The notes: a model not told the origin generated them from the sequence alone. A DNA stretch of 64,000 nucleotides from Hyphomicrobiales bacterium (GCA_947455995.1 CANGQA010000005.1:1599-65598), one strand, 5' to 3'; positions 30,713 through 48,183 are shown, numbered from the stretch's first letter. Made by a program: numbers and translations.

Positions 30713-31255
30713 ATGACCCAATCCATGGCGCAATCGACAATCGCTCCGCTTGACCAGGAGGAGTTGTGCCGACTTTACCGTGACAGCGAGGAGACGGTGG
30801 CCAGTCTGATGGCGCGTTCAGGCTTACGGGCGTCCGAATTCTATCAACTGTTGCGGGATCGTGGCTTGCCGCTCAGGCGTCCGCGCCGATCCAACCGCTC
30901 CGGCAATACAGCACCAGATCCTGAACGGCCCCGGAAGCCTGTGCGCAGGGAGGATCTGATTGCCCGCTTGTGGGAGGCGGCGTCAGGCCATATGGCGCAA
31001 ATTGAAACGCGGCTCGCGCGGCTCGATCAAGAGCAATCCAGCCACCCACCGGCGGCGGGAACCGAGAGTGAACTTCGTATCATGGGCCTGATTGTTAAAA
31101 CCCTGCGTGATCTGGCAGCCCTTGATGCGGATGTCGCGGGGGCGCGGAAGAAGGAGATGGTTCAAGATGACCTTGCCGCCGAACTGGCCACCTGCCCCGA
31201 AAGCATGCGCGCGGAACTGGCTCGACGTCTTGCTGGATTGCGCGAAGGCCGGTGA
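30713..31255 (+). CDS. GTA g1-position protein (putative small-terminase-like)
   Basis: 180 aa, immediately upstream of and overlapping TerL. The N-terminus looks HTH-like (LCRLYRDSEETVASLMARSGLRASEFYQLLRDRGL) and a helical region follows. The assignment rests on position only. The TTG at 30668 in the track spans the terminator hairpin and is rejected. Confidence 0.45.
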   Translation: MTQSMAQSTIAPLDQEELCRLYRDSEETVASLMARSGLRASEFYQLLRDRGLPLRRPRRSNRSGNTAPDPERPRKPVRREDLIARLWEAASGHMAQIETRLARLDQEQSSHPPAAGTESELRIMGLIVKTLRDLAALDADVAGARKKEMVQDDLAAELATCPESMRAELARRLAGLREGR

Positions 31256-32564
31256 GGAAAAACGGATTATTGCCTCTCTGAGCGAACGCGACATTGAATT
31301 CATGCTGGCGGACTGGATGAGTTGGGCGCGGCCTGACCAATGCCCACCTGCTCTATCGCAAACCGGATTGCCATGGACGGTCTGGTTGGTGCTGGGTGGA
31401 CGCGGGGCAGGCAAAACCCGCACAGGCGCAGAGTGGGTCCGCGGTATGGCTATCGGACTACCACCCTTTGCCGATCGCCCTGCCGGGCGTATTGCTTTGG
31501 TGGGGGAAACCCAGGCCGATGTCCGCGATGTGATGATCGAGGGAGTGTCGGGCCTGTTGTCTGTCCACAGACGGGACGAGCGGCCAGTCTGGCAGGCCTC
31601 GCGCCGAAGGCTTGAATGGCCTAACGGCACCATCGCACAGACTTTTTCCGCGGAAGACCCCGATAGTCTCCGCGGTCCGCAATTCGATGCTGCTTGGCTT
31701 GATGAATTGGGAAAATGGCGGCGTGCCGAAGAGACCTTCGACATGTTGCAATTCGGCTTGCGGCTGGGTGCCCAACCTCGTCAGACAGTGACAACGACGC
31801 CACGTCCGGTGCCTTTGTTGAAGCGGCTGATGGAAGATCCCGCAACAGCCATTTCCCGCGCGGCTACCCGTGCCAATGCCTTCCATCTGGCGCCATCATT
31901 TCTTGATGCCGTGGTCAAGCGCTATGCGGGAACGCGATTGGGCCGGCAAGAGCTGGAAGGCGAATGGCTGGATGAGCGCAATGATGCGCTGTGGACGCGC
32001 GCCGCATTGGAAATCTGCCGGATCGGGGTCGGAGACACGCCGCCACTTCAACGACTGGTGATCGCAATCGACCCGCCCGCCAGTTCGGGTCGGGATTCGG
32101 ATTCTTGCGGGCTGATCGTTGCGGGAATTGACGTCAACCGGACGGTCTATGTGCTCAATGATGCCACGCTGCCCCAAGCCCGCCCGCATGTCTGGGCAGG
32201 AAAGGCTGCTGCTCTTTATCGGGACTACGAGGCTGATGCCGTGGTGATTGAAACCAATCAGGGCGGCGAGATGGCCGAAGCGGTGTTGCGGGAAGCTGAT
32301 CCCGAATTAGCGGTGCTGCCGGTTCGTGCCACCAGAGGCAAGATGCTGAGGGCCGAACCTGTCGCGCTGCTTTACGAACAAGGACGAGTGAAACATGCAG
32401 GACTTTTCCGTGAGCTTGAAGATGAGATGTGCGATTTCGGCCCTAATCGGGAGGGTTGGGGTCTGTCGAACGGCCATTCGCCGGACCGGCTTGATGCTCT
32501 GGTCTGGGCTGTTACGGCTTTGGCCTTGGGCCCCAAAGCCACCCCACGCGTGAGACGGTTGTAA
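31167..32564 (+). CDS. GTA/phage terminase large subunit (g2-like)
   Basis: It has a Walker A motif (LVLGGRGAGKTRTGAEW), an N-terminal LSERDIEFMLADWMSWARPDQ typical of GTA TerL, and a C-terminal nuclease region. The start is uncertain (ATG 31167 or TTG 31230). It overlaps g1 in another frame. Confidence 0.9.
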   Translation: MTLPPNWPPAPKACARNWLDVLLDCAKAGEEKRIIASLSERDIEFMLADWMSWARPDQCPPALSQTGLPWTVWLVLGGRGAGKTRTGAEWVRGMAIGLPPFADRPAGRIALVGETQADVRDVMIEGVSGLLSVHRRDERPVWQASRRRLEWPNGTIAQTFSAEDPDSLRGPQFDAAWLDELGKWRRAEETFDMLQFGLRLGAQPRQTVTTTPRPVPLLKRLMEDPATAISRAATRANAFHLAPSFLDAVVKRYAGTRLGRQELEGEWLDERNDALWTRAALEICRIGVGDTPPLQRLVIAIDPPASSGRDSDSCGLIVAGIDVNRTVYVLNDATLPQARPHVWAGKAAALYRDYEADAVVIETNQGGEMAEAVLREADPELAVLPVRATRGKMLRAEPVALLYEQGRVKHAGLFRELEDEMCDFGPNREGWGLSNGHSPDRLDALVWAVTALALGPKATPRVRRL

Positions 32565-34021: not shown

Positions 34022-34228
34022 ATGCTTGACCGTTTGTCTGTCGATCTGCCCCAGCCGTCATTGGTGCCGGATGATCCTGCAGAAGCGAACGAAACCCTGA
34101 AGGTGCAGGCCCGGTTTTGGCAGCATCTTGTCCGCCTGACTGCTCCGGCCCGCCGCCTCCAGCAAATCCGCAAAGACTTTGCTGGCGGGCGTGAACCGCA
34201 GAACGCGTTGCGGGAGGGTTTGTTGTGA
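34022..34228 (+). CDS. Small ORF coupled to the prohead protease gene
   Basis: 68 aa. Its stop overlaps the GTG start of the protease (GTGA). I do not recognise the family. Confidence 0.4.
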   Translation: MLDRLSVDLPQPSLVPDDPAEANETLKVQARFWQHLVRLTAPARRLQQIRKDFAGGREPQNALREGLL

Positions 34229-34701
34229 TCGAACATCATCCCTCCAAGGCTGATGTACCGGTCGGTGAATTTGACGGTTATGCAAGCCTGTTCGGCCAGC
34301 CTGATCTGGGCCGTGATGTTGTTGCCAGCGGGGCCTTCGGTGAAAGCCTTGCCCGGCGCGGCGGTGCGGCTGGAATCAGGCTTTTGTGGCAGCATGATCC
34401 TTCCCAGCCCATCGGTGTCTGGACCGAGATACGGCAGGACCAGCACGGGCTCTATGTGCGCGGTGCGCTGAACCTGTCGGTCGCACGCGGGGGCGAATTG
34501 TTCGCGCTCTTGCAACAGGGCGCGTTGGGGGGGCTGTCAATCGGCTACCGCACCCAGAAGTCCTACGCGGATGCCCGCCACAGCGTGAGGATTTTAACCC
34601 GCATCGATCTTTGGGAAGTGTCGCTCGTGACATTTCCTTTACTGCCCTCGGCCCGTGTGTTGCGGGTTGCGGGATCCCCCTCGAACCGGAGACACTCATG
34701 A
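34225..34701 (+). CDS. HK97-family prohead protease (g4-like)
   Basis: It has FDGYASLFGQPDLGRDVVASGAF, LLWQHDPSQPIGVW and GLSIGY motifs. Confidence 0.85.
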   Translation: MIEHHPSKADVPVGEFDGYASLFGQPDLGRDVVASGAFGESLARRGGAAGIRLLWQHDPSQPIGVWTEIRQDQHGLYVRGALNLSVARGGELFALLQQGALGGLSIGYRTQKSYADARHSVRILTRIDLWEVSLVTFPLLPSARVLRVAGSPSNRRHS

Positions 34702-35987
34702 CAAGTTCCAATACTTCTGTGCAGTCCTCGTTGCTGCCCCCTGTTTTGCTGGCACCGGAAGTGAAGGCTTTTGACGCCGAACCCATTGATGCGCTCACCA
34801 CAGTCAATCGCCATTTCGAGGCCTTCAAGGACGGGAATGACCAGCGTCAGTCGCTGATCGACAAAGGCCGTTCGGTCGATGTTTTGATGGAAGAAAAACT
34901 GGCCCGTATGACCCATGCACTGGACGAGGCGCAAAGCAGATTGGAGAGCGCTTTACGTCAGCAACGCCGTCCGATGCTGGAGGGTGCCGAGCATGACTAT
35001 ACCAGCCCGCAACACCGCCACTATAAAAGTGCCTTCCACGATTACATGCGCTCTGGCGAAACATCCGGCCTGAAGGCACTCGAGCTCAAAGCGTTGTCCG
35101 CAGGCAGTCAGACCGATGGAGGCTATTTGGTAACACCGCCAGTCGAACGCGACATTCTCAAGCGTATGTCCGTGGCCTCACCGATCCGTTCGATTGCCAC
35201 AGTCCAGCAGATTTCAACCGCGACCTATCGCAAAGCCTATTCGACCACCGGGCCGGGAGCAGGATGGATCGGCGAAGTCGTGGCGCGCCCGCAAACCACC
35301 TCGCAGGTGATTGCCGATCTGAGTTTCCCGACCATGGAACTCTATGCCATGCCTGCAGCAACCCAGACTTTGCTGGATGATGCGGCGGTCAATGTCGAAC
35401 AGTGGATTGCCGATGAGGTGCAGGTTGTGTTTGCCGAGCAAGAAGGCGCAGCCTTCGTCAATGGTGATGGCACAACCAAGCCGCTCGGCTTTATGACACC
35501 GGCAAAAATTGCACAGGCCAACTGGAGCTGGGGCAAACTCGGCTATACCGTCACGGGGCTGTCGGCAGGCTTCACTGCCACCAATGGATCGGATGCGCTG
35601 ATTGATCTGATCTATTCGGTCAAGGCGGGCTATCGCCAGAGCGGACGTTTTGTGATGAACCGCAAGACGCAGGCGGCGATCCGCAAGCTCAAGGCCACAA
35701 CGGGCGAATATTTGTGGCAACCTCCGGCCATATTGGGCCAGCCTGCGACCTTGATGAATTTTCCGCTCGTCGAGGTCGAGGACATGCCCGATATTGCCGC
35801 CGATAGTTTTTCTGTTGCCTTCGGCAATTTCGCCCGCGCATATCTGATCGTCGACCGGATCGGTATCCGGGTGTTGCGTGATCCTTATTCCAACAAGCCC
35901 TATGTGATGTTCTACACCACCAAACGCGTGGGAGGTGGAGTGCAGGATTTCGATGCCATCAAACTGTTGAAATTCGGCACGGTCTGA
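34698..35987 (+). CDS. HK97-family major capsid protein (g5-like)
   Basis: The ATG at 34698 overlaps the protease stop (ATGA). It has an N-terminal scaffolding-like coiled coil, then DGGYLVTPPVERDI and GEYLWQPP motifs. Confidence 0.9.
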   Translation: MTSSNTSVQSSLLPPVLLAPEVKAFDAEPIDALTTVNRHFEAFKDGNDQRQSLIDKGRSVDVLMEEKLARMTHALDEAQSRLESALRQQRRPMLEGAEHDYTSPQHRHYKSAFHDYMRSGETSGLKALELKALSAGSQTDGGYLVTPPVERDILKRMSVASPIRSIATVQQISTATYRKAYSTTGPGAGWIGEVVARPQTTSQVIADLSFPTMELYAMPAATQTLLDDAAVNVEQWIADEVQVVFAEQEGAAFVNGDGTTKPLGFMTPAKIAQANWSWGKLGYTVTGLSAGFTATNGSDALIDLIYSVKAGYRQSGRFVMNRKTQAAIRKLKATTGEYLWQPPAILGQPATLMNFPLVEVEDMPDIAADSFSVAFGNFARAYLIVDRIGIRVLRDPYSNKPYVMFYTTKRVGGGVQDFDAIKLLKFGTV

Positions 35988-36008
35988 GGACCGATTTGAT
36001 GCGGCGCC

Positions 36009-36794
36009 TCACCGATTCAGGGTCTTGTCGATCCATGCACGCTGGGGTGCCAGCATGATACCTTGGGTCATGGCCCCGCAACGGGCTTGACCCTTGCCTT
36101 CGCTCCAGACCGTGATGGCTTGCAACACGCCGTCACGGTCGAAGATGCCGCCACCGGAATCGCCTGTGCAGGCACCCTGGTTGGCTTGTCCGGCGAGCCA
36201 AAGCAACAGCTTGCCCTGTCCGTAGGGCGTGACCACGGGGAGGGTGATCTGCCGCAAGGTGCCTGTGCTATCTGGCTGGGCCTCGCTCGACAGGCCGAAC
36301 CCTTGAATAGTCAAGCGTGTGTCTTTGGGGCTTGGAGGCTGACGGGATGGCGGCAGCTTGGCCGGTGCGAAACTGTCGGGCAAAATACGTTTCACCTGCA
36401 CAATCGCAAGGTCGATCGAACGGCTGCGCGCAGCAATGGCATCGCTGTGATAATCGGGATGGATGGTGATCCGTTTGGGCTCTTCCATGACAGGCTTGCC
36501 GTCAGCCCCGCGCCAATGCAAGCGGTAGGCAGACCCGCCTGTTACGCAATGGGCCGCTGTCAAAACGGAATCTGGTCCAATGACCACTCCGGAGCAGACC
36601 GAGCCGCGATCGGACAAGACCATCAGCATCGGATTTTCACCCGGGGGCACGCTCTGTCCACCGACAATGGCCCGAACCGGTGCGGTGGTGATCAGTATTG
36701 CGCCCAAGGCGAGCATGGCCAGATGGGCGATCATGATGCCGGAGCGTAAGGGATTCAGATCAATCAAGAGTGAAGACCTCTTTTTGAAAACCAT
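36009..36794 (-). CDS. Secreted trypsin-like serine protease (peptidase S1 family)
   Basis: The signal peptide ends ...APVRA, directly followed by IVGG. The catalytic triad contexts are LTAAHCV, IDLAIV and CTGDSGGGIF. It is antisense to the GTA genes. The start is 36794 (MVFKKR...) or 36734. Confidence 0.85.
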   Translation of the reverse strand: MVFKKRSSLLIDLNPLRSGIMIAHLAMLALGAILITTAPVRAIVGGQSVPPGENPMLMVLSDRGSVCSGVVIGPDSVLTAAHCVTGGSAYRLHWRGADGKPVMEEPKRITIHPDYHSDAIAARSRSIDLAIVQVKRILPDSFAPAKLPPSRQPPSPKDTRLTIQGFGLSSEAQPDSTGTLRQITLPVVTPYGQGKLLLWLAGQANQGACTGDSGGGIFDRDGVLQAITVWSEGKGQARCGAMTQGIMLAPQRAWIDKTLNR

Positions 36795-36825
36795 TTTTCT
36801 TTTCCACTCATCGGAGATTTTGCAG

Positions 36826-37386
36826 ATGATGTCCATGCAATTGATCGCGGAACCGCTTGTCGAGCCGGTGACATTGGACGAGGCGAAGCTGTTTTTGCGG
36901 ATCGACACCCTTGATGATGATGCGTTGTTGGCCAATCTGATCATGGCTAGCCGCCGCGTGATCGAACTCACAACCCGAACCTGTCTGCTGCAACAGACGT
37001 GGCGATTTGGGGTTGATCGTTGGCCGTCGAACACGTTGCTGCGCTTGCCATTGGCTCCACTTCAGTCTGTGTCCTCTGTGACTGTGATGGACGCAAGGGG
37101 CAATCGGCTTGCGCAAAATGTGCTCGATTTCCTGGCGAACCCAACCAGTGTGCCGCCCACTGTTATGGCCAAAACCGTCCCGCCTGTCAGTGCTGCTCGT
37201 GAGGGCGGTATCCAGGTCGATGCTGTGCTTGGTTATGGCAGCACCGCTGCATTGGTCCCTCAGCCTTTACGGATGGCGGTGTTGATGGTGCTGGCACAAT
37301 ATTATGAAACGCGGGGGCAGGGGGACGGCACACTGCCTGCGGCTGTGCGGACATTGATTGCACCGTTTACACGGAGGGCCTTATGA
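36826..37386 (+). CDS. Head-tail connector/adaptor (gp6-like, g6)
   Basis: The N-terminal signature EPVTLDEAKLFLRIDTLDDDALLANLIMASRRVIE identifies it. The stop overlaps the next start (ATGA). Confidence 0.8.
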   Translation: MMSMQLIAEPLVEPVTLDEAKLFLRIDTLDDDALLANLIMASRRVIELTTRTCLLQQTWRFGVDRWPSNTLLRLPLAPLQSVSSVTVMDARGNRLAQNVLDFLANPTSVPPTVMAKTVPPVSAAREGGIQVDAVLGYGSTAALVPQPLRMAVLMVLAQYYETRGQGDGTLPAAVRTLIAPFTRRAL

Positions 37387-37748
37387 GCACGCCCTTGCAT
37401 GACGCCGGTTTGCGGGCCCGTGACCCTGCATTGGCGGGCCGTCTGCGCGACCGCCTGAGTGTGGAAGTGCCTATTGATGTGCCCGATGGATATGGCGGGC
37501 TGACCCGAAGTTATCAGGTTAGCACCAAAGTCTGGGGGATGATTGTGCCTTATCAGATCAGGACAGGACGCGGGCCTGATCAGGACGGGCAGGTGATCAG
37601 CCATTTGGTTGTGATGCGCTGGCGCGGTGATATCGAAATCGGGATGCGGCTGCGCAAGGGTACACGCCTCTTGCGGATCTGCGAGTTGGCCGATGCCGAC
37701 GGACGGCGGATGCGGATGGTGTGTCTGTGCGAGGAGGATCACGCATGA
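37383..37748 (+). CDS. Head closure / head-tail joining protein (g7-like)
   Basis: 121 aa with LRDRLSVEVPIDVPDGYGGLTRSYQVSTKVWGMIVP, typical of the SPP1 gp16/HK97 gp8-type family. Confidence 0.75.
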   Translation: MSTPLHDAGLRARDPALAGRLRDRLSVEVPIDVPDGYGGLTRSYQVSTKVWGMIVPYQIRTGRGPDQDGQVISHLVVMRWRGDIEIGMRLRKGTRLLRICELADADGRRMRMVCLCEEDHA

Positions 37749-38182
37749 CTGTGACAGTCCCTATCATCACGGGTCCGGTCCTGGCTGTGCGCGAGAGGCT
37801 GCGTAATTTCTGGTTGGCCGATTCCGTGCTGCTCGGCTTGCTGGGTGGCGAGAAGATTTACGATACAGCCCCGCGTTCGGTCATTCCGCCTTATGTGACC
37901 TTTGGCAGCGTGACAGCCAGACAATGGCTCGGCGGCAGCCAGCGTGGTCATGAGCAGAATATCACGATTACTGTCTGGTCGCGCCAGATTTCGGACCGCG
38001 AAAGTCTTGAGATCGCAAGTCGGATGAGCCTGATCAGCGATGGCGCTTTGCTGTCTATGGCGGATTATCAGCTTTGGCCCTTGCAGGTGTTGAACCTTGA
38101 TTGTCCGCAAGGCACGCCGCAAGGTTTGCGGCAGACGGTCGTGGTCCTGCGGGCGCTGACTGCGCCAATCGCTAGAACCTAG
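37745..38182 (+). CDS. DUF3168 tail-completion/terminator-like protein (g8-like)
   Basis: It has the motif KIYDTAPRSVIPPYVTFGSVTARQW. The ATG overlaps the g7 stop. Confidence 0.7.
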   Translation: MTVTVPIITGPVLAVRERLRNFWLADSVLLGLLGGEKIYDTAPRSVIPPYVTFGSVTARQWLGGSQRGHEQNITITVWSRQISDRESLEIASRMSLISDGALLSMADYQLWPLQVLNLDCPQGTPQGLRQTVVVLRALTAPIART

Positions 38183-38484
38183 TAAAGCGGTATTTGCTGG
38201 AGCGCGGCATTGATGTCGGCGCGGGCCTGGCTCTGCTGGTTGGTCAGCATGACGAGAAACTCCTCGCTGGCTGGTTCAATACCGGTTTCGATCGCGAAGA
38301 TATTATGGCTGAGCGAGGTGTAGTAGGCGACAAGGCGGCGGAACACCGGATCACGGTGTTTAAGACGCGCAAAATTGGCGGCCTGATCCGCAAATTCCTC
38401 CTCGACTGAAAGCAGCACAGGGGAGACCACCAAACCCGGATCTTCGGGGTGCGATGGCGGCTCATCTGGATTGGGATCACTCAC
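38179..38484 (-). CDS. DUF465 (YdcH-like) small protein with an acidic/Pro-rich N-terminal extension
   Basis: FARLKHRDPVFRRLVAYYTSLSHNIFAIETGIEPASEEFLVMLTNQQSQARADI follows the DUF465 pattern (..HF.RL..eY......I...E....p.sde.l..LKk.rL.lKDEI). Its stop overlaps the g8 stop within CTAG. Confidence 0.65.
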   Translation of the reverse strand: MSDPNPDEPPSHPEDPGLVVSPVLLSVEEEFADQAANFARLKHRDPVFRRLVAYYTSLSHNIFAIETGIEPASEEFLVMLTNQQSQARADINAALQQIPLY

Positions 38485-38595
38485 AGCAACAACTCCTGAT
38501 TCATCGAGAATTCATAGCCCTAACCTGCATGTCCGACAACCGGACAGAATGGGCTTGGCAGCAGCAGCTTTTTGAAACGGTTATGGCGAGGATGC

Positions 38596-39255
38596 ATGAA
38601 TACGGATTTTCACGAAGTGGTTTTTCCGCTGGCCTTGTCGATGCAGGCCCGCGGCGGGCCGCAGCGGCATACAAACATCGTTACCACTGGCGCAGGTCGC
38701 GAGAACAGGATCAGCCGTTGGGCCTATTCACGATATCACTACGACATCGGCTCAGGAATAAAAACACGCGCTGATCTGGCGTTGCTGCTGAGCTTTTTTG
38801 AGGAACGGCGCGGGGCGTTTTACGGCTTCCGTTTCCGTGATCCGCTCGATCACTCCAGTGCGGAGCCGGATATGGCCGTGACGCCGTTCGATCAGCCGAT
38901 CGGGCAGGGTGATGGCACGCGTCTGGCGTTTCAACTGGTCAAAACCTATGGCGCTGCGTTTGCGCCTTATGCGCGACCTATTTTCAAGCCTGTTGCCGGA
39001 ACTCTCCGGCTTGCTGTGGCGGGAGTGGAGGTCGCACTGGGGCAAAATGCCGATTGTGATCCGCGCACGGGACTGGTGCGCTTTCGTTCGGGCCATTGTC
39101 CGGCGCCCGGGCAGACGGTAACCGCAGGTTTTGAATTCGATGTCCCCGTGCGTTTTGCCGATGATCGGCTGGAAGCAGCTCTCGATGCTTTCGGAAGCGG
39201 CGAGATCACCAAAATCAGTTTGATCGAATTGCTCTGCCAACCGGAAAAGGCATGA
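38596..39255 (+). CDS. GTA distal tail protein (DUF2460 / TIGR02217-like, g12)
   Basis: The hallmark N-terminus is MNTDFHEVVFPLALSMQARGGPQRHTNIVTTGAGRENRISRWAYSRYHYD. A GAGGA Shine-Dalgarno lies 6 nt upstream. Confidence 0.85.
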   Translation: MNTDFHEVVFPLALSMQARGGPQRHTNIVTTGAGRENRISRWAYSRYHYDIGSGIKTRADLALLLSFFEERRGAFYGFRFRDPLDHSSAEPDMAVTPFDQPIGQGDGTRLAFQLVKTYGAAFAPYARPIFKPVAGTLRLAVAGVEVALGQNADCDPRTGLVRFRSGHCPAPGQTVTAGFEFDVPVRFADDRLEAALDAFGSGEITKISLIELLCQPEKA

Positions 39256-43500: not shown

Positions 43501-44558
43501 TTACATCAATTCGTGAACAAGGCACGCGGCTGATCACAGCTCGTGCTATTGCCGATACGATCGGTAAAGCCCGGCCAGTTTCTATGCCCGCCCTTCATAT
43601 GAGCGCACCGAAACTGGCCAGTCGTCCATGGGTGGCGATTTTCGATTTGCCGATCACGATGGGATCACCGGTGGTGATGCAAGTGATTGCTGCCTTTGCC
43701 GATCCTTGGCCTGCAAGCCTAACAGTCTGGCGGTCTGCCGACGCGGTGTCCTATGATCCTGTTTTGACGCTGGATGCTCCTGCACGGCTCGGCAAGCTGC
43801 TCGGCGATTGCCCTGCTGGCCGTCTTTGGGTGTGGGATGAGTCCTGTTCTTTGACCATCGAGTTGCAAGGCGGGGTCTTGACCAGTCCGGGCGATCTCAA
43901 CGGATTGAGCGGTTCGCCCGCTCTGGCGATCGAGGGAGCAGACGGGACATGGGAGGTTATCAGCTTTGCACGGGCCGAATTGGTCGGACCCAAACAATGG
44001 CGGTTGAGCCGTTTGCTGCGCGGTCTGGGCGGGTCAGAACTTGCAGCGCAGCGCTTTGTCGCCGCCGGTGCACGTTGCGTTGTGCTCGACAGGGCGGTCA
44101 AGCCATTGCGGCAGGGGCTGTCTGCTTTAGGAGAGGTTTGGCATTGGCGTGTTGCGGCTTCGCATCTTGACTATTCCGACACGATGGCTGTGGCACTCGA
44201 TTCAACGGTCAGTGGAGCGGCTTTGATCCCTCTGTCTCCGGTGGGGCTGACCACCAAACGGACCCCGCAGGGCATTGTGCTGAACTGGATCAGGCGCGCA
44301 CGCTCGGATGCAGATGGATGGGGTGTGTCGGATATTCCGATGGATGAGGACGTCGAGGCCTATCAAGTCAGCATTATCAAACAAGGCCAGACCATCCGGC
44401 AGATGATGGTTTCGACCACCAGCTGCCTCTATGCCGCCACTGATGAATGGGCTGATTTCGGGCAGGCACAAAGCCGTCTCTGGGTCAGTATCAGGCAGAT
44501 CAGTTCAGCTGTCGGACCTGGTGCTGCGCTGACAGCACATGCGACTATCCTCTCGTAA
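40593..44558 (+). CDS. GTA host-specificity / baseplate megatron protein (g15-like)
   Basis: 1321 aa, a size and position that match RcGTA g15. It has an N-terminal Gly-rich segment, a central glycoside-hydrolase-like TIM region and a C-terminal phage-tail host-specificity-like region. Confidence 0.8.
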   Translation: MMGTLILNAAQGSVRATAGGLIGHGVGSLLGGGPIGSMFGRIAGQAFSGALSDHRTRLHDGPRLHDMPVMGATEGAPIPKVYGRARIGGTLIWATRFAEVITQTETETGSGGTSGGLGFKGGGGGSSTLNRTYSYYGNFAVAVCEGPVAFIRRIWADGQLLDHQAVTLRIYRGDESQQPDPLIVAKEGAANTPAFRGTCYVVFERMPLAAFGNRLPQLSFEVVRPVNGIGQKIRSINLIPGSGEFVYGVTATSRDFGQGNSQSESRHDLSGASDWMVSLDALQALCPNLQHVQLVVSWFGDDLRCDSCTVAPRIEMAGKATIGAQWTVAGLARVGARTVSQINGRAAYGGTPSDQSVMEAITDLHRRGLAVTLYPFLMMDIPPDNTLPDPWSGTDRQAAYPWRGRISCAPAPGQAGSPDGTLAAATAVQKFFGNATAAQFSYRNGVVFSGGAEWSWRRMVLHYATLAKAAGGVNGFIIGSEFVTLNHIRSGIGTFPGPIAFARLANEVQSVLGTATVLTYAADWTEYGGYSPGAGELRFPLDVLWAHPAIGAVGIDAYWPVSDWRDGNQHRDLAQAETIYDPAYLSTCMISGENFDWYYASPSDRQAQLRTPITDGRINKPWVWRAKDIQGWWSNQHFERLNGSEYANPTPWQPFSKPIWMTEIGCPAVDKGANAPNVFPDPKSSEAALPPFSLGERDDVMLLRFIESVLLAFDPHQGADASRNPTSPVYGGRMIDADRISFWAWDTRPFPAFPMMGDVWADNGNWQTGHWLTGRLESISLDGLMKSMLDDAGLSVALTGRIDEVIDGYVADHPMSVAEMVAPLCDLLDIEVAVTGAGLRLLASKRKPVAQLMRDDCVALPNGALFEHHRKRETGLPSELALSFTESEADYRRAVVSSRRLTGRVGHKALAEFALVTRRCEAQRMADTWLHRLWTSRDEVTFALTPRWIGLEVGDVVMLPVTDLAGTFVITSIREQGTRLITARAIADTIGKARPVSMPALHMSAPKLASRPWVAIFDLPITMGSPVVMQVIAAFADPWPASLTVWRSADAVSYDPVLTLDAPARLGKLLGDCPAGRLWVWDESCSLTIELQGGVLTSPGDLNGLSGSPALAIEGADGTWEVISFARAELVGPKQWRLSRLLRGLGGSELAAQRFVAAGARCVVLDRAVKPLRQGLSALGEVWHWRVAASHLDYSDTMAVALDSTVSGAALIPLSPVGLTTKRTPQGIVLNWIRRARSDADGWGVSDIPMDEDVEAYQVSIIKQGQTIRQMMVSTTSCLYAATDEWADFGQAQSRLWVSIRQISSAVGPGAALTAHATILS

Positions 44559-44586
44559 CACGACTTTTTATAGAAGGATCAATCCT

Positions 44587-45732
44587 ATGGCGCAAACGGC
44601 TCGGCTCGGTCTGGCACTGATGGCAGCAGCGCAGGCACAAAAACATGTGACCCATAATGATGCATTGCTGTCGCTCGATGCGCTTGTTCAGGCGGTGGTG
44701 CTGGAAACGGACCGTCTGTCTCCACCGGCCGTGCCGCAAGAGGGCGATGCTTATCTGATCGGCACATCGCCCACAGGTGCATTTGCAGGGCAGTCCGGCA
44801 TGCTGGCAGCTTACCTGACAGGAAGTTGGCGGTTCTTTCAGCCACAAACGGGTTGGCTGGTTTTTGCCAAAAGCCGCAATGCGCTGATGGTGCTGAGTGG
44901 TGGCAGCTGGCATGTGCTGGATGATCTGGCCCAAAGCTTTGCCAATCTCAAAAGTCTTGGCATCGGAACCAGTGCGGATTCGACCAACCGGCTTGCAGTC
45001 AAAACCAATGCCGCCTTGTTCGTAGCCACCAGTGCAACCGAGGGCGGCAGTGGTGATTTACGGGTGGTGTTCAACAAGCCCTTGCCTACGGGGACTGTCT
45101 CGCATCTTTTCCAGTCCAACTGGTCCGGGCGAACCGAATTGGGGCTGACCGGGGATGACCAGTTCCATATCAAAGTCTCGCCCGATGGCAGCTCATGGAC
45201 CGAGGCACTGGTTTGCTCCCCCGCCAATGGCACGGTGCGGATGGATAGAGTGCTGACAGGCCGCGCGACGCCTCGTGTGACCGCTTGCTACGAGGCTGAA
45301 TTTTCAGGGGCAAGCAAGCTGGGTATCGCGCTCAATGACAGCGGTGCCGCGGCATCCACAGCCATCAGCTTTAGTCGCTCGGGTGTGCTGATCGGTTCGG
45401 TCGGTTTGGCAACTGCCGGTGTCAGTTTTAACACCACATCGGATTATCGCCTCAAGACGGCAATCAAGCCGCTATCATGTGCCGTCAATCGGCTCAAACA
45501 GCTCAGAGCACTGCGCTACGAATTTATCTCCCAACAGGGGCATGAGCTTGATGGATTTTTGGCGCATGAGGTTGCAGATGTGGTTCCAGAAGCGGTGACA
45601 GGAACCAAAGACGGTATCGACGAGCAAGGTCTTCCGGTATGGCAGCAACTCGACCAGACCCGCTTGATCCCTTTGCTGGTCGCAGCTTTGCAGGAGGTGC
45701 TGATCCGCCTTGAAACTCTCGAAACCCATTGA
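44587..45732 (+). CDS. DUF2793-type tail fibre with a C-terminal peptidase S74 intramolecular-chaperone domain
   Basis: The N-terminus is TARLGLALMAAAQAQKHVTHNDALLSLDALVQ...GDAYLIG. The C-terminus, SDYRLKTAIKPL..AVNRLKQLRALRYEF...GFLAHEVADVVPEAV...LIPLLVAALQEV, matches the autocleaving chaperone module. Confidence 0.7.
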   Translation: MAQTARLGLALMAAAQAQKHVTHNDALLSLDALVQAVVLETDRLSPPAVPQEGDAYLIGTSPTGAFAGQSGMLAAYLTGSWRFFQPQTGWLVFAKSRNALMVLSGGSWHVLDDLAQSFANLKSLGIGTSADSTNRLAVKTNAALFVATSATEGGSGDLRVVFNKPLPTGTVSHLFQSNWSGRTELGLTGDDQFHIKVSPDGSSWTEALVCSPANGTVRMDRVLTGRATPRVTACYEAEFSGASKLGIALNDSGAAASTAISFSRSGVLIGSVGLATAGVSFNTTSDYRLKTAIKPLSCAVNRLKQLRALRYEFISQQGHELDGFLAHEVADVVPEAVTGTKDGIDEQGLPVWQQLDQTRLIPLLVAALQEVLIRLETLETH

Positions 45733-45781
45733 TCGGACTTGTTCATATCATGTTCAGCGATCGCGGTTTACAGATAGGTCT

Positions 45782-46105
45782 ATGAAAACAGCATTCTCAT
45801 CATTGATTTTCATTATCGCCATGCTGGCACTGGCCGGCACGGGCGTTTATGCTGCAAGCAACGGGGCAGGACGTTCCTGTTTGTCGGCCCCCGATGTGCG
45901 TGAACTGGTCGACAAGGCAGAGGTGGTTCCCGCCGCCCGCGCCATTTATACCGCAAGAACGGCGGTTTTCGGCGAAGCCGTCAAGGTACGCTTGTGCAAA
46001 CAGGATGGGGCGTTTGTTTATCTGGTAACGATACTGGCAAAAGATGGAAAAATCAGGGTAGTTGAAGTCGATGGCCGTTCCGGCACTTTGATCGAGCGGC
46101 ATTGA
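45782..46105 (+). CDS. PepSY-domain periplasmic protein
   Basis: It has a signal peptide (MKTAFSSLIFIIAMLALAGTGVYA) and a PepSY-like C-terminus (YLVTILAKDGKIRVVEVDGRSGTLI). Confidence 0.65.
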   Translation: MKTAFSSLIFIIAMLALAGTGVYAASNGAGRSCLSAPDVRELVDKAEVVPAARAIYTARTAVFGEAVKVRLCKQDGAFVYLVTILAKDGKIRVVEVDGRSGTLIERH

Positions 46106-46126
46106 GGCCGATGGGGAAATATTGAA

Positions 46127-46795
46127 ATGCGATTGCTGGTTGTCGAAGATGACAAGGACTTGAACCGCCAGATTGTTGCTGCGCTAGAGCAGGCCGGCTA
46201 CGTCGTCGACAAAGCTTTTGACGGTGAGGAAGGCCAGTATCTGGGAGAAACAGAGCCTTATGATGCGGTGATCCTCGATCTTGGTCTGCCAGTCCATGAT
46301 GGATCGTCGGTGCTAAAGGCATGGCGCGAAGCAGGCAAGACAATGCCAGTGCTGATCCTGACTGCTCGCGGGCGCTGGAGCGACAAGGTCAATGCGTTCG
46401 ATATGGGTGCAGACGATTATGTCACCAAACCCTTCCACATTGAAGAAATTCTGGCACGTGTCCGCGCCCTCCTGAGGCGGGCAACCGGCCATGCCAAAAG
46501 CGAGCTGGTCTGTGGTCCGGTGGTGCTCGACACTAAAAACGGGCGGGTTACGGTTGATGGCAATCCGGTGCGGCTGACCTCGCATGAATACCGTCTGATC
46601 GCCTATTTGATGCACCATCAGGGCCGCATCATCTCACGAAGCGAAATCATCGAACATCTTTATGATCAGGATTTCGATCGCGACTCGAACACCATCGAGG
46701 TGTTTGTCGGGCGAATCCGCAAAAAGCTCGGGATTGATATTATCGAAACCGTACGCGGCCTTGGCTACAGGCTGGAATTGCCGCAGGCTGGTTGA
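46127..46795 (+). CDS. OmpR/PhoB-family response regulator
   Basis: It has a receiver domain (MRLLVVEDD, DAVILDLGLP, LTAR) and a winged-helix output domain (RLTSHEYRLIAYL...VRGLGYRL). Confidence 0.9.
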   Translation: MRLLVVEDDKDLNRQIVAALEQAGYVVDKAFDGEEGQYLGETEPYDAVILDLGLPVHDGSSVLKAWREAGKTMPVLILTARGRWSDKVNAFDMGADDYVTKPFHIEEILARVRALLRRATGHAKSELVCGPVVLDTKNGRVTVDGNPVRLTSHEYRLIAYLMHHQGRIISRSEIIEHLYDQDFDRDSNTIEVFVGRIRKKLGIDIIETVRGLGYRLELPQAG

Positions 46796-48183
46796 GCATG
46801 ATGCAACTGATCGGCAAAGCTTCTTTATCAACGCGGATGATTGTCGGCGCTTTGCTGAGTAGTCTGACCGTACTGGCCGCAGCGGGTGTGATTCTCAGCC
46901 ATATCCATAGACAGGCCACGGAGCAGGCATTTGACGAACGGCTTAACGTCTATTTGCAGGCGCTGACCGGTGGATTGGCCTCACCGACCGAAAGCGACCA
47001 TTCGGAGCCTTCCGATCTTGGCGATCCCAAATTCGATTTGCCGATGTCGGGCTGGTATTGGCAGATTGACAGCGGGGGTGACGGTAAGGGTGTTACGATT
47101 GCGTCGCCCTCTTTGTTCGGGTCGAGGTTGCCGCGCTTGGTCACGCCGACACCACGCACCACCAGTTCCGATATTCTGATAGGCTATGTCATAGGCCCAG
47201 ATGGTCGTAATTTGCGGGTGATGGAGCGGATGGTTCTGACCCCGGATGGGGTCTGGCACAGGCTGCGCGTGGCGGCGGATGCCGATGAAATCGAGCGGGC
47301 CGTTCAGGCTTTTCGCTTTCCCCTTTTGCTGACATTCGGCCTGTTGGGTGCGATTATTGTCTGTCTGACAGCCTTGCAAGTCTGGTTGGGAATGCGTCCG
47401 TTGGGGCGGCTGTCCAAAGCCTTGGCCGACATCAGAACCGGACAGGCCGACAGGATTGATGGCGGCTATCCGCCCGATCTGGCTCCTCTGGCGCGGGAAT
47501 TGAACTTACTGCTCGAGTCCAACCGCGAGATCATGGAGCGGGCCCGTACGCAGGTCGGCAATCTTGCCCATGCTTTAAAGACGCCATTGAGCGTTATAGC
47601 CAACGAGGCTGCCACCATAGATGGCGAGGTAGGCGATAAAATCCGAGAGCAGTCGGCTGTGATAAGCACCCAGATGGACTGGTATCTCGAGCGCGCCAGA
47701 ACGGCGGCGGCCAGCGTTGCTCTGGGCAGAGCGACCGAGCTTGCTCCGGTGATTGGCGGGTTAGCAAGGGTGTTCGCTAAATTGTGGCAAAGCCGGGCCG
47801 TCGCGCTGGTGCATGAGATTCCATCCGGTCTGTGTTTTCGTGGCGAGAAACAGGATCTGGAGGAAATGCTTGGCAATTTGATCGATAATGCGGGCAAATG
47901 GGCCAGTACAAAGGTGACTGTAACGGCTTTTGTGAGTGAGGGCGTAGAGCCGTTTGTCAGTGTCATGATTGATGATGATGGCCCCGGTTTGGCCAAGGAA
48001 TTGCGAATTGAAGCCATGCAGCGTGGGCGCAGGCTCGATGAAACCCGCCCCGGTACGGGACTTGGTTTGGCGATTGTCGCCGATCTGGCCAAACTCTATG
48101 GCGGACAACTGACCCTGGAGGACAGTCCTGCTGGTGGATTACGGGCCTGTTTGCACTTGCCGGCACTGCAGTCCCCGTCATAA
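46792..48183 (+). CDS. Sensor histidine kinase (two TM, HAMP, HisKA, HATPase)
   Basis: It has an H-box (NLAHALKTPLS), an N-box (LIDNAGKW), G1 (DDDGPGL) and G2 (GTGLGLAIV). It overlaps the response-regulator stop. Confidence 0.9.
   Translation: MSMMQLIGKASLSTRMIVGALLSSLTVLAAAGVILSHIHRQATEQAFDERLNVYLQALTGGLASPTESDHSEPSDLGDPKFDLPMSGWYWQIDSGGDGKGVTIASPSLFGSRLPRLVTPTPRTTSSDILIGYVIGPDGRNLRVMERMVLTPDGVWHRLRVAADADEIERAVQAFRFPLLLTFGLLGAIIVCLTALQVWLGMRPLGRLSKALADIRTGQADRIDGGYPPDLAPLARELNLLLESNREIMERARTQVGNLAHALKTPLSVIANEAATIDGEVGDKIREQSAVISTQMDWYLERARTAAASVALGRATELAPVIGGLARVFAKLWQSRAVALVHEIPSGLCFRGEKQDLEEMLGNLIDNAGKWASTKVTVTAFVSEGVEPFVSVMIDDDGPGLAKELRIEAMQRGRRLDETRPGTGLGLAIVADLAKLYGGQLTLEDSPAGGLRACLHLPALQSPS

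Follow-up and report, generated by a model that had tools for sequence, protein, structure and literature searches.

The 64,000-nucleotide stretch of a Hyphomicrobiales bacterium analysed here (GCA_947455995.1 CANGQA010000005.1:1599-65598, referred to in full as the window) contains a gene transfer agent (GTA) cluster of the type known from Rhodobacter capsulatus (RcGTA), in which a reverse-strand gene for a chymotrypsin-fold serine protease separates the major capsid gene, g5, from the head-tail adaptor gene, g6. The usual picture of an RcGTA-type cluster is one structural operon with all genes in the same direction, vertically inherited across the Alphaproteobacteria, and RcGTA itself is not known to have an S1 protease between g5 and g6. 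The protein is an intact S1A endopeptidase, and its gene is native to the cell, not derived from phage, and subject to purifying selection; sequence comparison indicates that it is ancient and inherited vertically with the cluster. The reading that we favour, giving it about an even chance, is that of a host periplasmic or secreted protease whose value is independent of the GTA and which became trapped at the operon's natural break between head and neck genes. The gene and its parts are located in the window as follows.

36009..36794, reverse strand: coding sequence of the S1A serine protease, from the list of open reading frames (ORFs) and the sequence; 261 amino acids (aa) counted from the ATG at 36794.
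36009-36011, reverse strand: its stop codon.
36669..36794, reverse strand: signal-peptide coding part, residues 1-42 from ATG 36794, with hydrophobic core IMIAHLAMLALGAILITTA and cleavage motif V-R-A.
36012..36668, reverse strand: mature protease domain, 219 aa, beginning IVGG, aligned with residue 1 of mature proteases in the PDB.
36549..36551, reverse strand: codon of catalytic His82 (TAAHC), an invariant alignment column.
36411..36413, reverse strand: codon of catalytic Asp128 (SIDLA; context SIDLAIV), an invariant alignment column.
36156..36158, reverse strand: codon of catalytic Ser213 (GDSGG), an invariant alignment column.

The preliminary description of this stretch had recognised a complete, secreted protease of the chymotrypsin fold from the contexts TAAHC, IDLAIV and GDSGG, and profile, alignment and model bear this out, with export standing as a prediction. 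The protein matches the Pfam profile PF00089 (Trypsin) over positions 1-209 of 220 (E 1.8e-27, 97 bits against a cutoff of 20.6), and has 916 homologues at E<=1e-5. In a family alignment of 26 protease sequences (A1), H82, D128 and S213, which correspond to His57-Asp102-Ser195, are invariant, and a wider check shows them kept in 128 of 128 aligned copies. D212 (Asp194, the partner of the new N-terminus) is likewise invariant in A1, as are the pairs C67/C83 and C209/C239, equivalent to the 42-58 and 191-220 disulfides; the four Cys of the protein are all paired in this way. The AlphaFold2 model (predicted local distance difference test, pLDDT, 83.8; predicted template modelling score, pTM, 0.79) shows an N-terminal helix at residues 15-33 followed by two beta-barrels, and the top 50 Foldseek matches to it are all S1A proteases (E about 1e-14, template modelling score about 0.76), the best of them being granzyme H, Fusarium trypsin, chymase and chymotrypsin. 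With profile, triad and double barrel all present, the protein is an intact S1A (chymotrypsin-fold) serine endopeptidase. NCBIfam holds no model for it, and its Hyphomicrobiales subfamily has no characterised member. Secreted S1A proteases of known structure, such as the Fusarium oxysporum trypsin (1try/1fn8) and Vibrio VesC (6bqm), have in common with it PF00089, the two-barrel fold, the triad, Asp194, the 42-58 and 191-220 disulfides and the IVGG start, whereas the window protease is about 23-27% identical to any solved structure, carries Gly189, and is without a propeptide before IVGG, extra domains or a C-terminal sorting signal.

Concerning specificity, S1-pocket position 189 corresponds to G207, an invariant Gly in A1 and not an Asp, hence the label "trypsin-like" used in the preliminary description is true of the fold but not of the specificity, and a trypsin sensu stricto, specific for Arg or Lys, is ruled out. 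Position 216 is Ser, Ala or Thr across the aligned copies; judged from the sequence, the P1 specificity is probably small or hydrophobic. The name HtrA/DegP (S1C), which some sources give to homologues, was also rejected, since only Trypsin/Trypsin_2 domains and no PDZ domain are found and the protein ends 20 residues past the barrel.

The predicted signal peptide reads R-S-G-IMIAHLAMLALGAILITTA-P-V-R-A and is followed directly by I; it includes the region modelled as a helix (15-33) and has no lipobox Cys. It was called by applying the -3/-1 rule to the sequence. The junction is as the preliminary description had it, with VRA immediately before IVGG, and an AxA-type junction, with Ala followed by [IVLM]-x-G-G directly after the predicted cleavage site, is conserved family-wide. 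In a search of PDB sequences, the protein from residue 43 onward (IVGG) aligns with residue 1 of mature trypsins, granzymes and factor Xa. The predicted route is Sec-dependent export with signal peptidase I, which would cleave after VRA and free IVGG; because this end would be able to pair with Asp212, no propeptide step would be needed. Activation by signal peptidase only, without a propeptide, is thus the predicted design conserved across the family.

It should be noted that the start codon is ambiguous, gene starts here being predictions, and that three candidates exist, ATG 36794 (261 aa), TTG 36767 (252 aa) and ATG 36734. The reading frame does extend from the ATG at 36794 proposed earlier, but the start ATG of close relatives aligns with codon 11 of the window gene (ATT). 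TTG 36767, next to that codon, is preceded by AGAGG and is the start used in the 98%-identical database protein P0001; by alignment it is the start homologous to the relatives' ATG, which would widen the spacer to g6 from 31 to 58 nt. The mature protease is identical for either start.

The distribution of the gene was obtained by searching the protease profile against one genome per species, which yielded 80 loci, all from Hyphomicrobiales apart from mislabelled metagenome-assembled genomes (MAGs). At 44 of the 80 the protease has g5 on one side and g6 on the other, and 8 more show one of the two flanks. This is the survey of related taxa that the preliminary description had proposed, and it places the protease at the junction in all close relatives and in many genera. 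Metagenome relatives with 52-98% protease identity carry it on the reverse strand at g5/g6, contigs at 79-81% have an arrangement identical to that of the window, and the relative at 52% (L004) keeps protease, g6 and the genes through g15 together. Among named genomes, Chelatococcus, Bosea, Microvirga, Methylobacterium bullatum and Methylorubrum extorquens (L172, CP110131.1) have the gene at g5/g6, and the same junction is occupied in relatives down to about 32-45% protein identity. At least nine families are represented: Methylobacteriaceae, Alloboseaceae, Chelatococcaceae, Alsobacteraceae, Phreatobacteraceae, Nitrobacteraceae (Tardiphaga) and Xanthobacteraceae, together with MAGs labelled Beijerinckiaceae and Salinarimonadaceae.

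Most clusters have two tandem protease genes between g5 and g6, both with intact catalytic residues (L006, L007, L009-L011, L014-L017, L020-L035, L038-L046, L088 and L172), while in the window lineage, Alsobacter, Chelatococcus, Xanthobacter and several Beijerinckiaceae-type MAGs the g6-proximal copy is the only one retained. In the protease tree, built like the capsid tree by neighbour-joining without support values, g6-proximal and g5-proximal copies form two clades, each of which follows host taxonomy; this makes the duplication an old one.

A capsid-based scan of IMG/VR for clusters with or without the protease returned 65 clusters in which g5 directly adjoins g6 and 6 with the protease. 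Ten of the protease-less capsids could be named by exact look-up, and belong to Aminobacter, Pseudaminobacter (2), Rhizobium (2), Aurantimonas, Hartmannibacter, Faunimonas, Cohaesibacter and Methylosinus. A capsid search of a plasmid collection added the clusters of Paracoccus and M. bullatum; its Sinorhizobium matches were discarded as an unrelated HK97-type prophage. The cluster of Paracoccus denitrificans (Rhodobacterales) is without the protease, in agreement with the absence from RcGTA noted in the preliminary description. Protease-bearing clusters group together in the capsid tree, with a single exception: the Methylosinus capsid falls inside this group, although Methylosinus sp. LW3 and a relative (L095/L096) have a complete GTA cluster without protease and a g5-g6 gap of about 95-104 nt. 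This nesting points to a secondary loss of the protease in a lineage that kept its GTA. In the simplest history the gene was gained once, at the root of the Methylobacterium/Bosea/Xanthobacter/Bradyrhizobium branch of the order, was duplicated early and has been lost on occasion.

A few loci depart from the common arrangement. In L004 (10823-11579) only the last 26 codons of g5 stand beside the protease stop, 96% identical to the C-terminus of the window capsid, followed by an A+T-rich 162-aa ORF and transporter genes; the head module there looks like the product of a recent disruption or an assembly join. Two Xanthobacteraceae-type MAGs are rearranged, L061 with the protease pair between g11 and g5 and with g6-g10.1 missing, and L063 with g6 and two proteases and no g5 nearby.

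Regarding origin, the protease has no PHROG family and no tblastn match in 50,697 phage records, and its GC content, overall and at third codon positions (GC3), is like that of the neighbouring genes, hence the gene is of cellular origin. Its ratio of nonsynonymous to synonymous substitution rates (dN/dS) is 0.14-0.19 against three relatives, within the 0.04-0.21 of the GTA genes. These data bear on the proposal, made in the preliminary description, of a moron-like cargo gene, which they do not support. A non-structural gene that lies in reverse within a structural operon of phage descent, and is probably transcribed independently, is indeed what a phage moron looks like. But a recent moron, or any horizontally acquired cargo gene, is very improbable: occupation of one junction across many genera contradicts it, the protease phylogeny tracks the hosts, and the gene is absent from the phage records searched, native in composition, ancient, vertically inherited and without a flanking terminator.

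The immediate surroundings of the gene are the following.

34698..35987 (stop 35985-35987), forward strand: g5, major capsid, the upstream convergent neighbour; Pfam Phage_capsid, E 2.6e-86.
35988..36008: convergent junction from g5 stop to protease stop, 21 nt, no terminator.
36795..36825 (31 nt), or 36768-36825 (58 nt) when counted from TTG 36767: divergent spacer from protease start to g6 start, A+T-rich.
36804..36825, forward strand: 22-nt block CCACTCATCGGAGATTTTGCAG directly upstream of the g6 ATG, including a GGAG ribosome-binding site.
36826..37386, forward strand: g6, head-tail adaptor, the divergent neighbour; Pfam Phage_connect_1, NCBIfam TIGR02215, E 1.6e-43.

The earlier observation of almost no spacer on either side thus holds, with 21 nt on the convergent side and 31 nt on the divergent side when counted from ATG 36794. 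A scan for promoter and terminator consensus gave no significant site at the window's convergent junction, and none resembling a terminator between its two stops, and the junction folds no better than shuffled sequences on either strand (z -0.31 and -1.28). In protease-bearing clusters some 25 nt typically separate the g5 stop from the protease stop, and few of these junctions have a terminator-like hairpin (3 of 48 on the g5 strand, 5 of 48 on the protease strand). By contrast, a strict scan of the protease-less clusters found, in 19 of 65, a GC-rich hairpin and T-run separating g5 from g6, seen for instance in L098, L104, L106, L108, L111, L113, L117, L124-L126, L168 and L169, and in Aminobacter, Pseudaminobacter and Aurantimonas. 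Such a structure after the capsid gene resembles a terminator or attenuator that would lower neck and tail expression. The hairpins mark the junction as the natural punctuation point of the operon, one that could tolerate a foreign gene. On the divergent side, the equivalent spacer is mostly 3-120 nt in more than 40 other clusters (33 nt in Methylorubrum extorquens). The CCACTCATCGGAGATTTTGCAG block is near-invariant in the window, L001, L003 and L008, with at most one substitution each, whereas the sequence around it, both elsewhere in the spacer and in the codons of the signal peptide, varies freely; it covers the ribosome-binding site and perhaps more. Rfam and tRNA scans of the window returned nothing.

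These junctions raise the question of whether the orientation was selected and not the enzyme. The reverse gene would then replace the stem-loop, and convergent transcription, through polymerase collision or antisense RNA, would set the head-to-tail ratio, or would make expression of the protease and of the full GTA mutually exclusive. Hairpins in protease-less clusters against near-absent spacers and rare terminators in protease-bearing ones are what such a replacement would leave, and in the absence of terminators the protease transcript and head-to-tail read-through would overlap, as sense and antisense, if both units are active. A roadblock alone, though, explains neither the purifying selection on the protein nor the invariant catalytic residues of all copies and the retention of two paralogues, and we consider this reading improbable.

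Proteases outside GTA clusters bear on the question of function. At 21 of the 80 loci no GTA gene lies within at least 3 kb on both sides, including copies in Bradyrhizobium, the M. platani group, Bosea sp. OK403, Methylocapsa and Lichenihabitans; the contexts are ordinary (e.g. methylthioadenosine (MTA) phosphorylase with flavin monooxygenase, or a PAS histidine kinase), and all these stand-alone copies keep the catalytic residues. GTA clusters in turn persist without the protease in Methylosinus, Rhizobiaceae, Phyllobacteriaceae, Aurantimonadaceae and Paracoccus. It is because of these two observations that a GTA-independent value is favoured, and they weaken the suggestion of the preliminary description that the gene could be an accessory factor in particle release, envelope remodelling or recipient interaction.

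In its developed form, the accessory proposal takes the protease, or the pair, as an enzyme co-regulated with the neck and tail genes from a bidirectional promoter in the spacer to g6 and acting, within the periplasm, on envelope or surface proteins, where it might loosen outer-membrane tethers at lysis, destroy a protein receptor against re-adsorption to producers or debris, or trim exposed particle proteins after release. We regard it as possible but rather unlikely. It draws on the conservation of the position in at least nine families and in both ancient paralogues, on the very short, A+T-rich spacer to g6, on the protease remaining with g6-g15 in the split L004 cluster, and on a precedent in Caulobacter crescentus, where GTA release is controlled by the CARD-NLR-like LypABC system with the serine-peptidase activity of LypA/LypC (PMC13236601). 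It is opposed, beyond the stand-alone copies and the protease-less clusters, by the opposite strand of the gene and by the lack of access of an exported enzyme to cytoplasmic assembly intermediates. Moreover, the window has no full CtrA box (TTAA-N7-TTAA), and a comparison of the protease/g6 spacer with the region that precedes the cluster gave only a chance-level 9-mer as a common motif. With the same reserve, the protease, an ancient paralogue pair in most genera, may tentatively be seen as a clade-specific GTA component of one major Hyphomicrobiales branch. It would be switched with or against the neck and tail genes by way of the 30-60-nt spacer to g6 and the convergent junction that lacks a terminator, and would aid release or block re-adsorption by acting on envelope or receptor proteins in the periplasm.

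The Caulobacter peptidases also suggest a protease of defence or lysis of the CARD-NLR/LypABC kind, or an effector such as a variant of Lamassu LmuA. Trypsin-like peptidases drive GTA-linked lysis in that organism, and PADLOC gives a weak match to LmuA (E 2.8e-7), limited to the protease domain. What the window protease and LypABC have in common is a trypsin-fold serine peptidase activity linked with GTA biology. However, LypA (CARD-like, peptidase and ATPase domains) and LypC (peptidase and endonuclease) are big cytoplasmic proteins of several domains, with genes elsewhere than in the structural cluster, whereas the window enzyme is a 219-aa single domain encoded within it, with a predicted signal peptide and disulfides and hence presumably extracytoplasmic. 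CARD-like, ATPase and nuclease domains are all absent from it, and no gene for an NLR partner lies nearby. The predicted exported, single-domain architecture excludes a role of the LypABC/CARD-NLR type, which leaves the whole proposal barely credible. The cluster's other serine protease, the g4 prohead protease (GTA/HK97, Peptidase_S78), is of an unrelated fold and family; it works in the cytoplasm, on the capsid within the prohead, and is encoded on the operon strand.

We return to the trapped host protease. Under this reading the precursor would be exported by Sec and cut by signal peptidase after VRA, and the exposed Ile-Val-Gly-Gly would pair with Asp212, giving a mature protease that acts in the periplasm or outside the cell. 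A cellular gene would have been captured once, early in one major Hyphomicrobiales branch, between the g1-g5 head and g6-g15 neck/tail modules; early duplication and vertical inheritance with the cluster would have followed, the window lineage being left with the g6-proximal copy. The gene would be transcribed on its own strand from the A+T-rich spacer that it has in common with g6, toward the capsid gene and with no terminator between, and the strong synteny of the cluster would keep it in place. If it affects the GTA at all, it would do so through convergent transcription where head and neck genes meet, and not through proteolysis of GTA proteins. In this scheme the data show the intact gene, its fold, the conserved cleavage junction, the distribution among taxa, purifying selection, the sizes of the spacers and the lack of terminators, and from them we infer export and activation, independent transcription and a GTA-independent function.

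Several points weigh against it. The gene, often as a pair, is kept with almost zero spacer on both sides in at least nine families, a retention tighter and longer than expected of a neutral passenger, and it could be coupled to g6 in regulation or function. The break of the L004 cluster leaves the protease with g6-g15; this is one event, and we give it less weight as a sign that the protease belongs to the tail half, because the capsid gene, which looks recently disrupted, is truncated next to an A+T-rich insert. Finally, the stand-alone copies may have changed function, and since their status was judged from the flanks, the same genomes could carry a GTA cluster elsewhere.

Taken together, a large branch of the Hyphomicrobiales, bacteria of soil and water (Methylobacteriaceae, Bosea, Xanthobacteraceae, Beijerinckiaceae-type lineages, Tardiphaga, Phreatobacter, Chelatococcus and Alsobacter) carries one or two reverse genes for a predicted exported protease, kept intact at g5/g6 since before those families split. 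The insertion divides the operon where other clusters have a hairpin, and so bears on the dosage of head and tail genes; it is also a clean synapomorphy for tracing the evolution of the cluster, and it offers a candidate for an accessory function peculiar to the lineage, one open to test in tractable species, Methylorubrum extorquens among them. If unrelated to the GTA, the protease would exemplify a host gene long trapped inside a domesticated viral operon; if accessory, it would be the first known case of an exported enzyme with its gene within a GTA structural operon. In the literature searched, including the comparative papers PMC5721377, PMC6821227, PMC10883770 and PMC11409702, we found no description of an S1 protease in a GTA cluster, and the only link between GTAs and trypsin-fold peptidases was that of the cytoplasmic LypA/LypC of Caulobacter.

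The remainder of the cluster follows the order g2, g3, g4, g5, reverse protease, g6, g7, g8, reverse 101-aa ORF, g12-g15 and a DUF2793 gene. Positions of further members are these.

31092-32564: g2.
34225-34701, same strand as the operon: g4, prohead protease (Peptidase_S78).
37721-38182: g8.
38179-38484, reverse strand: 101-aa ORF, a second reverse-strand resident, in place of g9-g11 between g8 and g12.
38572-39255: g12.

The colinear order g2-g8...g12-g15, which is the canonical one of Rhodobacter capsulatus g1-g15, and the characteristic families GTA_TIM, Phage_BR0599 and DUF2460 identify the cluster as RcGTA-like. It differs from RcGTA in the reverse protease at g5/g6 and in having the reverse 101-aa ORF instead of g9, g10, g10.1 and g11. 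A tblastn search with the Bosea g9-g11 proteins found no match to g9 (tail tube), g10/g10.1 (chaperones) or g11 (tape measure) in the whole 64-kb window. These genes are also missing from the cluster in L001-L004, L008 and L092; they are present in Bosea, Chelatococcus, Microvirga, Methylobacterium and others, and the nearest outgroup, L093, keeps g9 after g8. The remaining GTA genes of the window lineage are under purifying selection despite the missing g9-g11 (dN/dS 0.04-0.21, as given above), so either g9-g11 were relocated or the particle is unusual. The 101-aa ORF has no match in Pfam, NCBIfam, PHROGs or PADLOC and a dN/dS of 0.22-0.29; its homologues sit between g11 and g12 in L014, L022 and L041, as would be expected if the window lineage lost g9-g11 in a single deletion.

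The DUF2793 gene (44539-45732), with a weak Peptidase_S74 tail, overlaps the end of g15 by 20 nt and looks like the tail-fibre gene that RcGTA has at a separate locus; its position fits the occurrence of rcc00171 homologues at the 3' end of some Rhizobiales clusters (PMC5721377). Directly downstream of the cluster (45710-48183) there follow a 131-aa small exported protein, an OmpR-family response regulator and a PhoQ-like histidine kinase. The response regulator (46127-46795) was considered as CtrA and rejected, being PmrA/QseB/PhoP-like with a score of 180 against the 350 cutoff of the CtrA model. The same response regulator also follows the cluster in L001, L002, L004 and Bosea L006.

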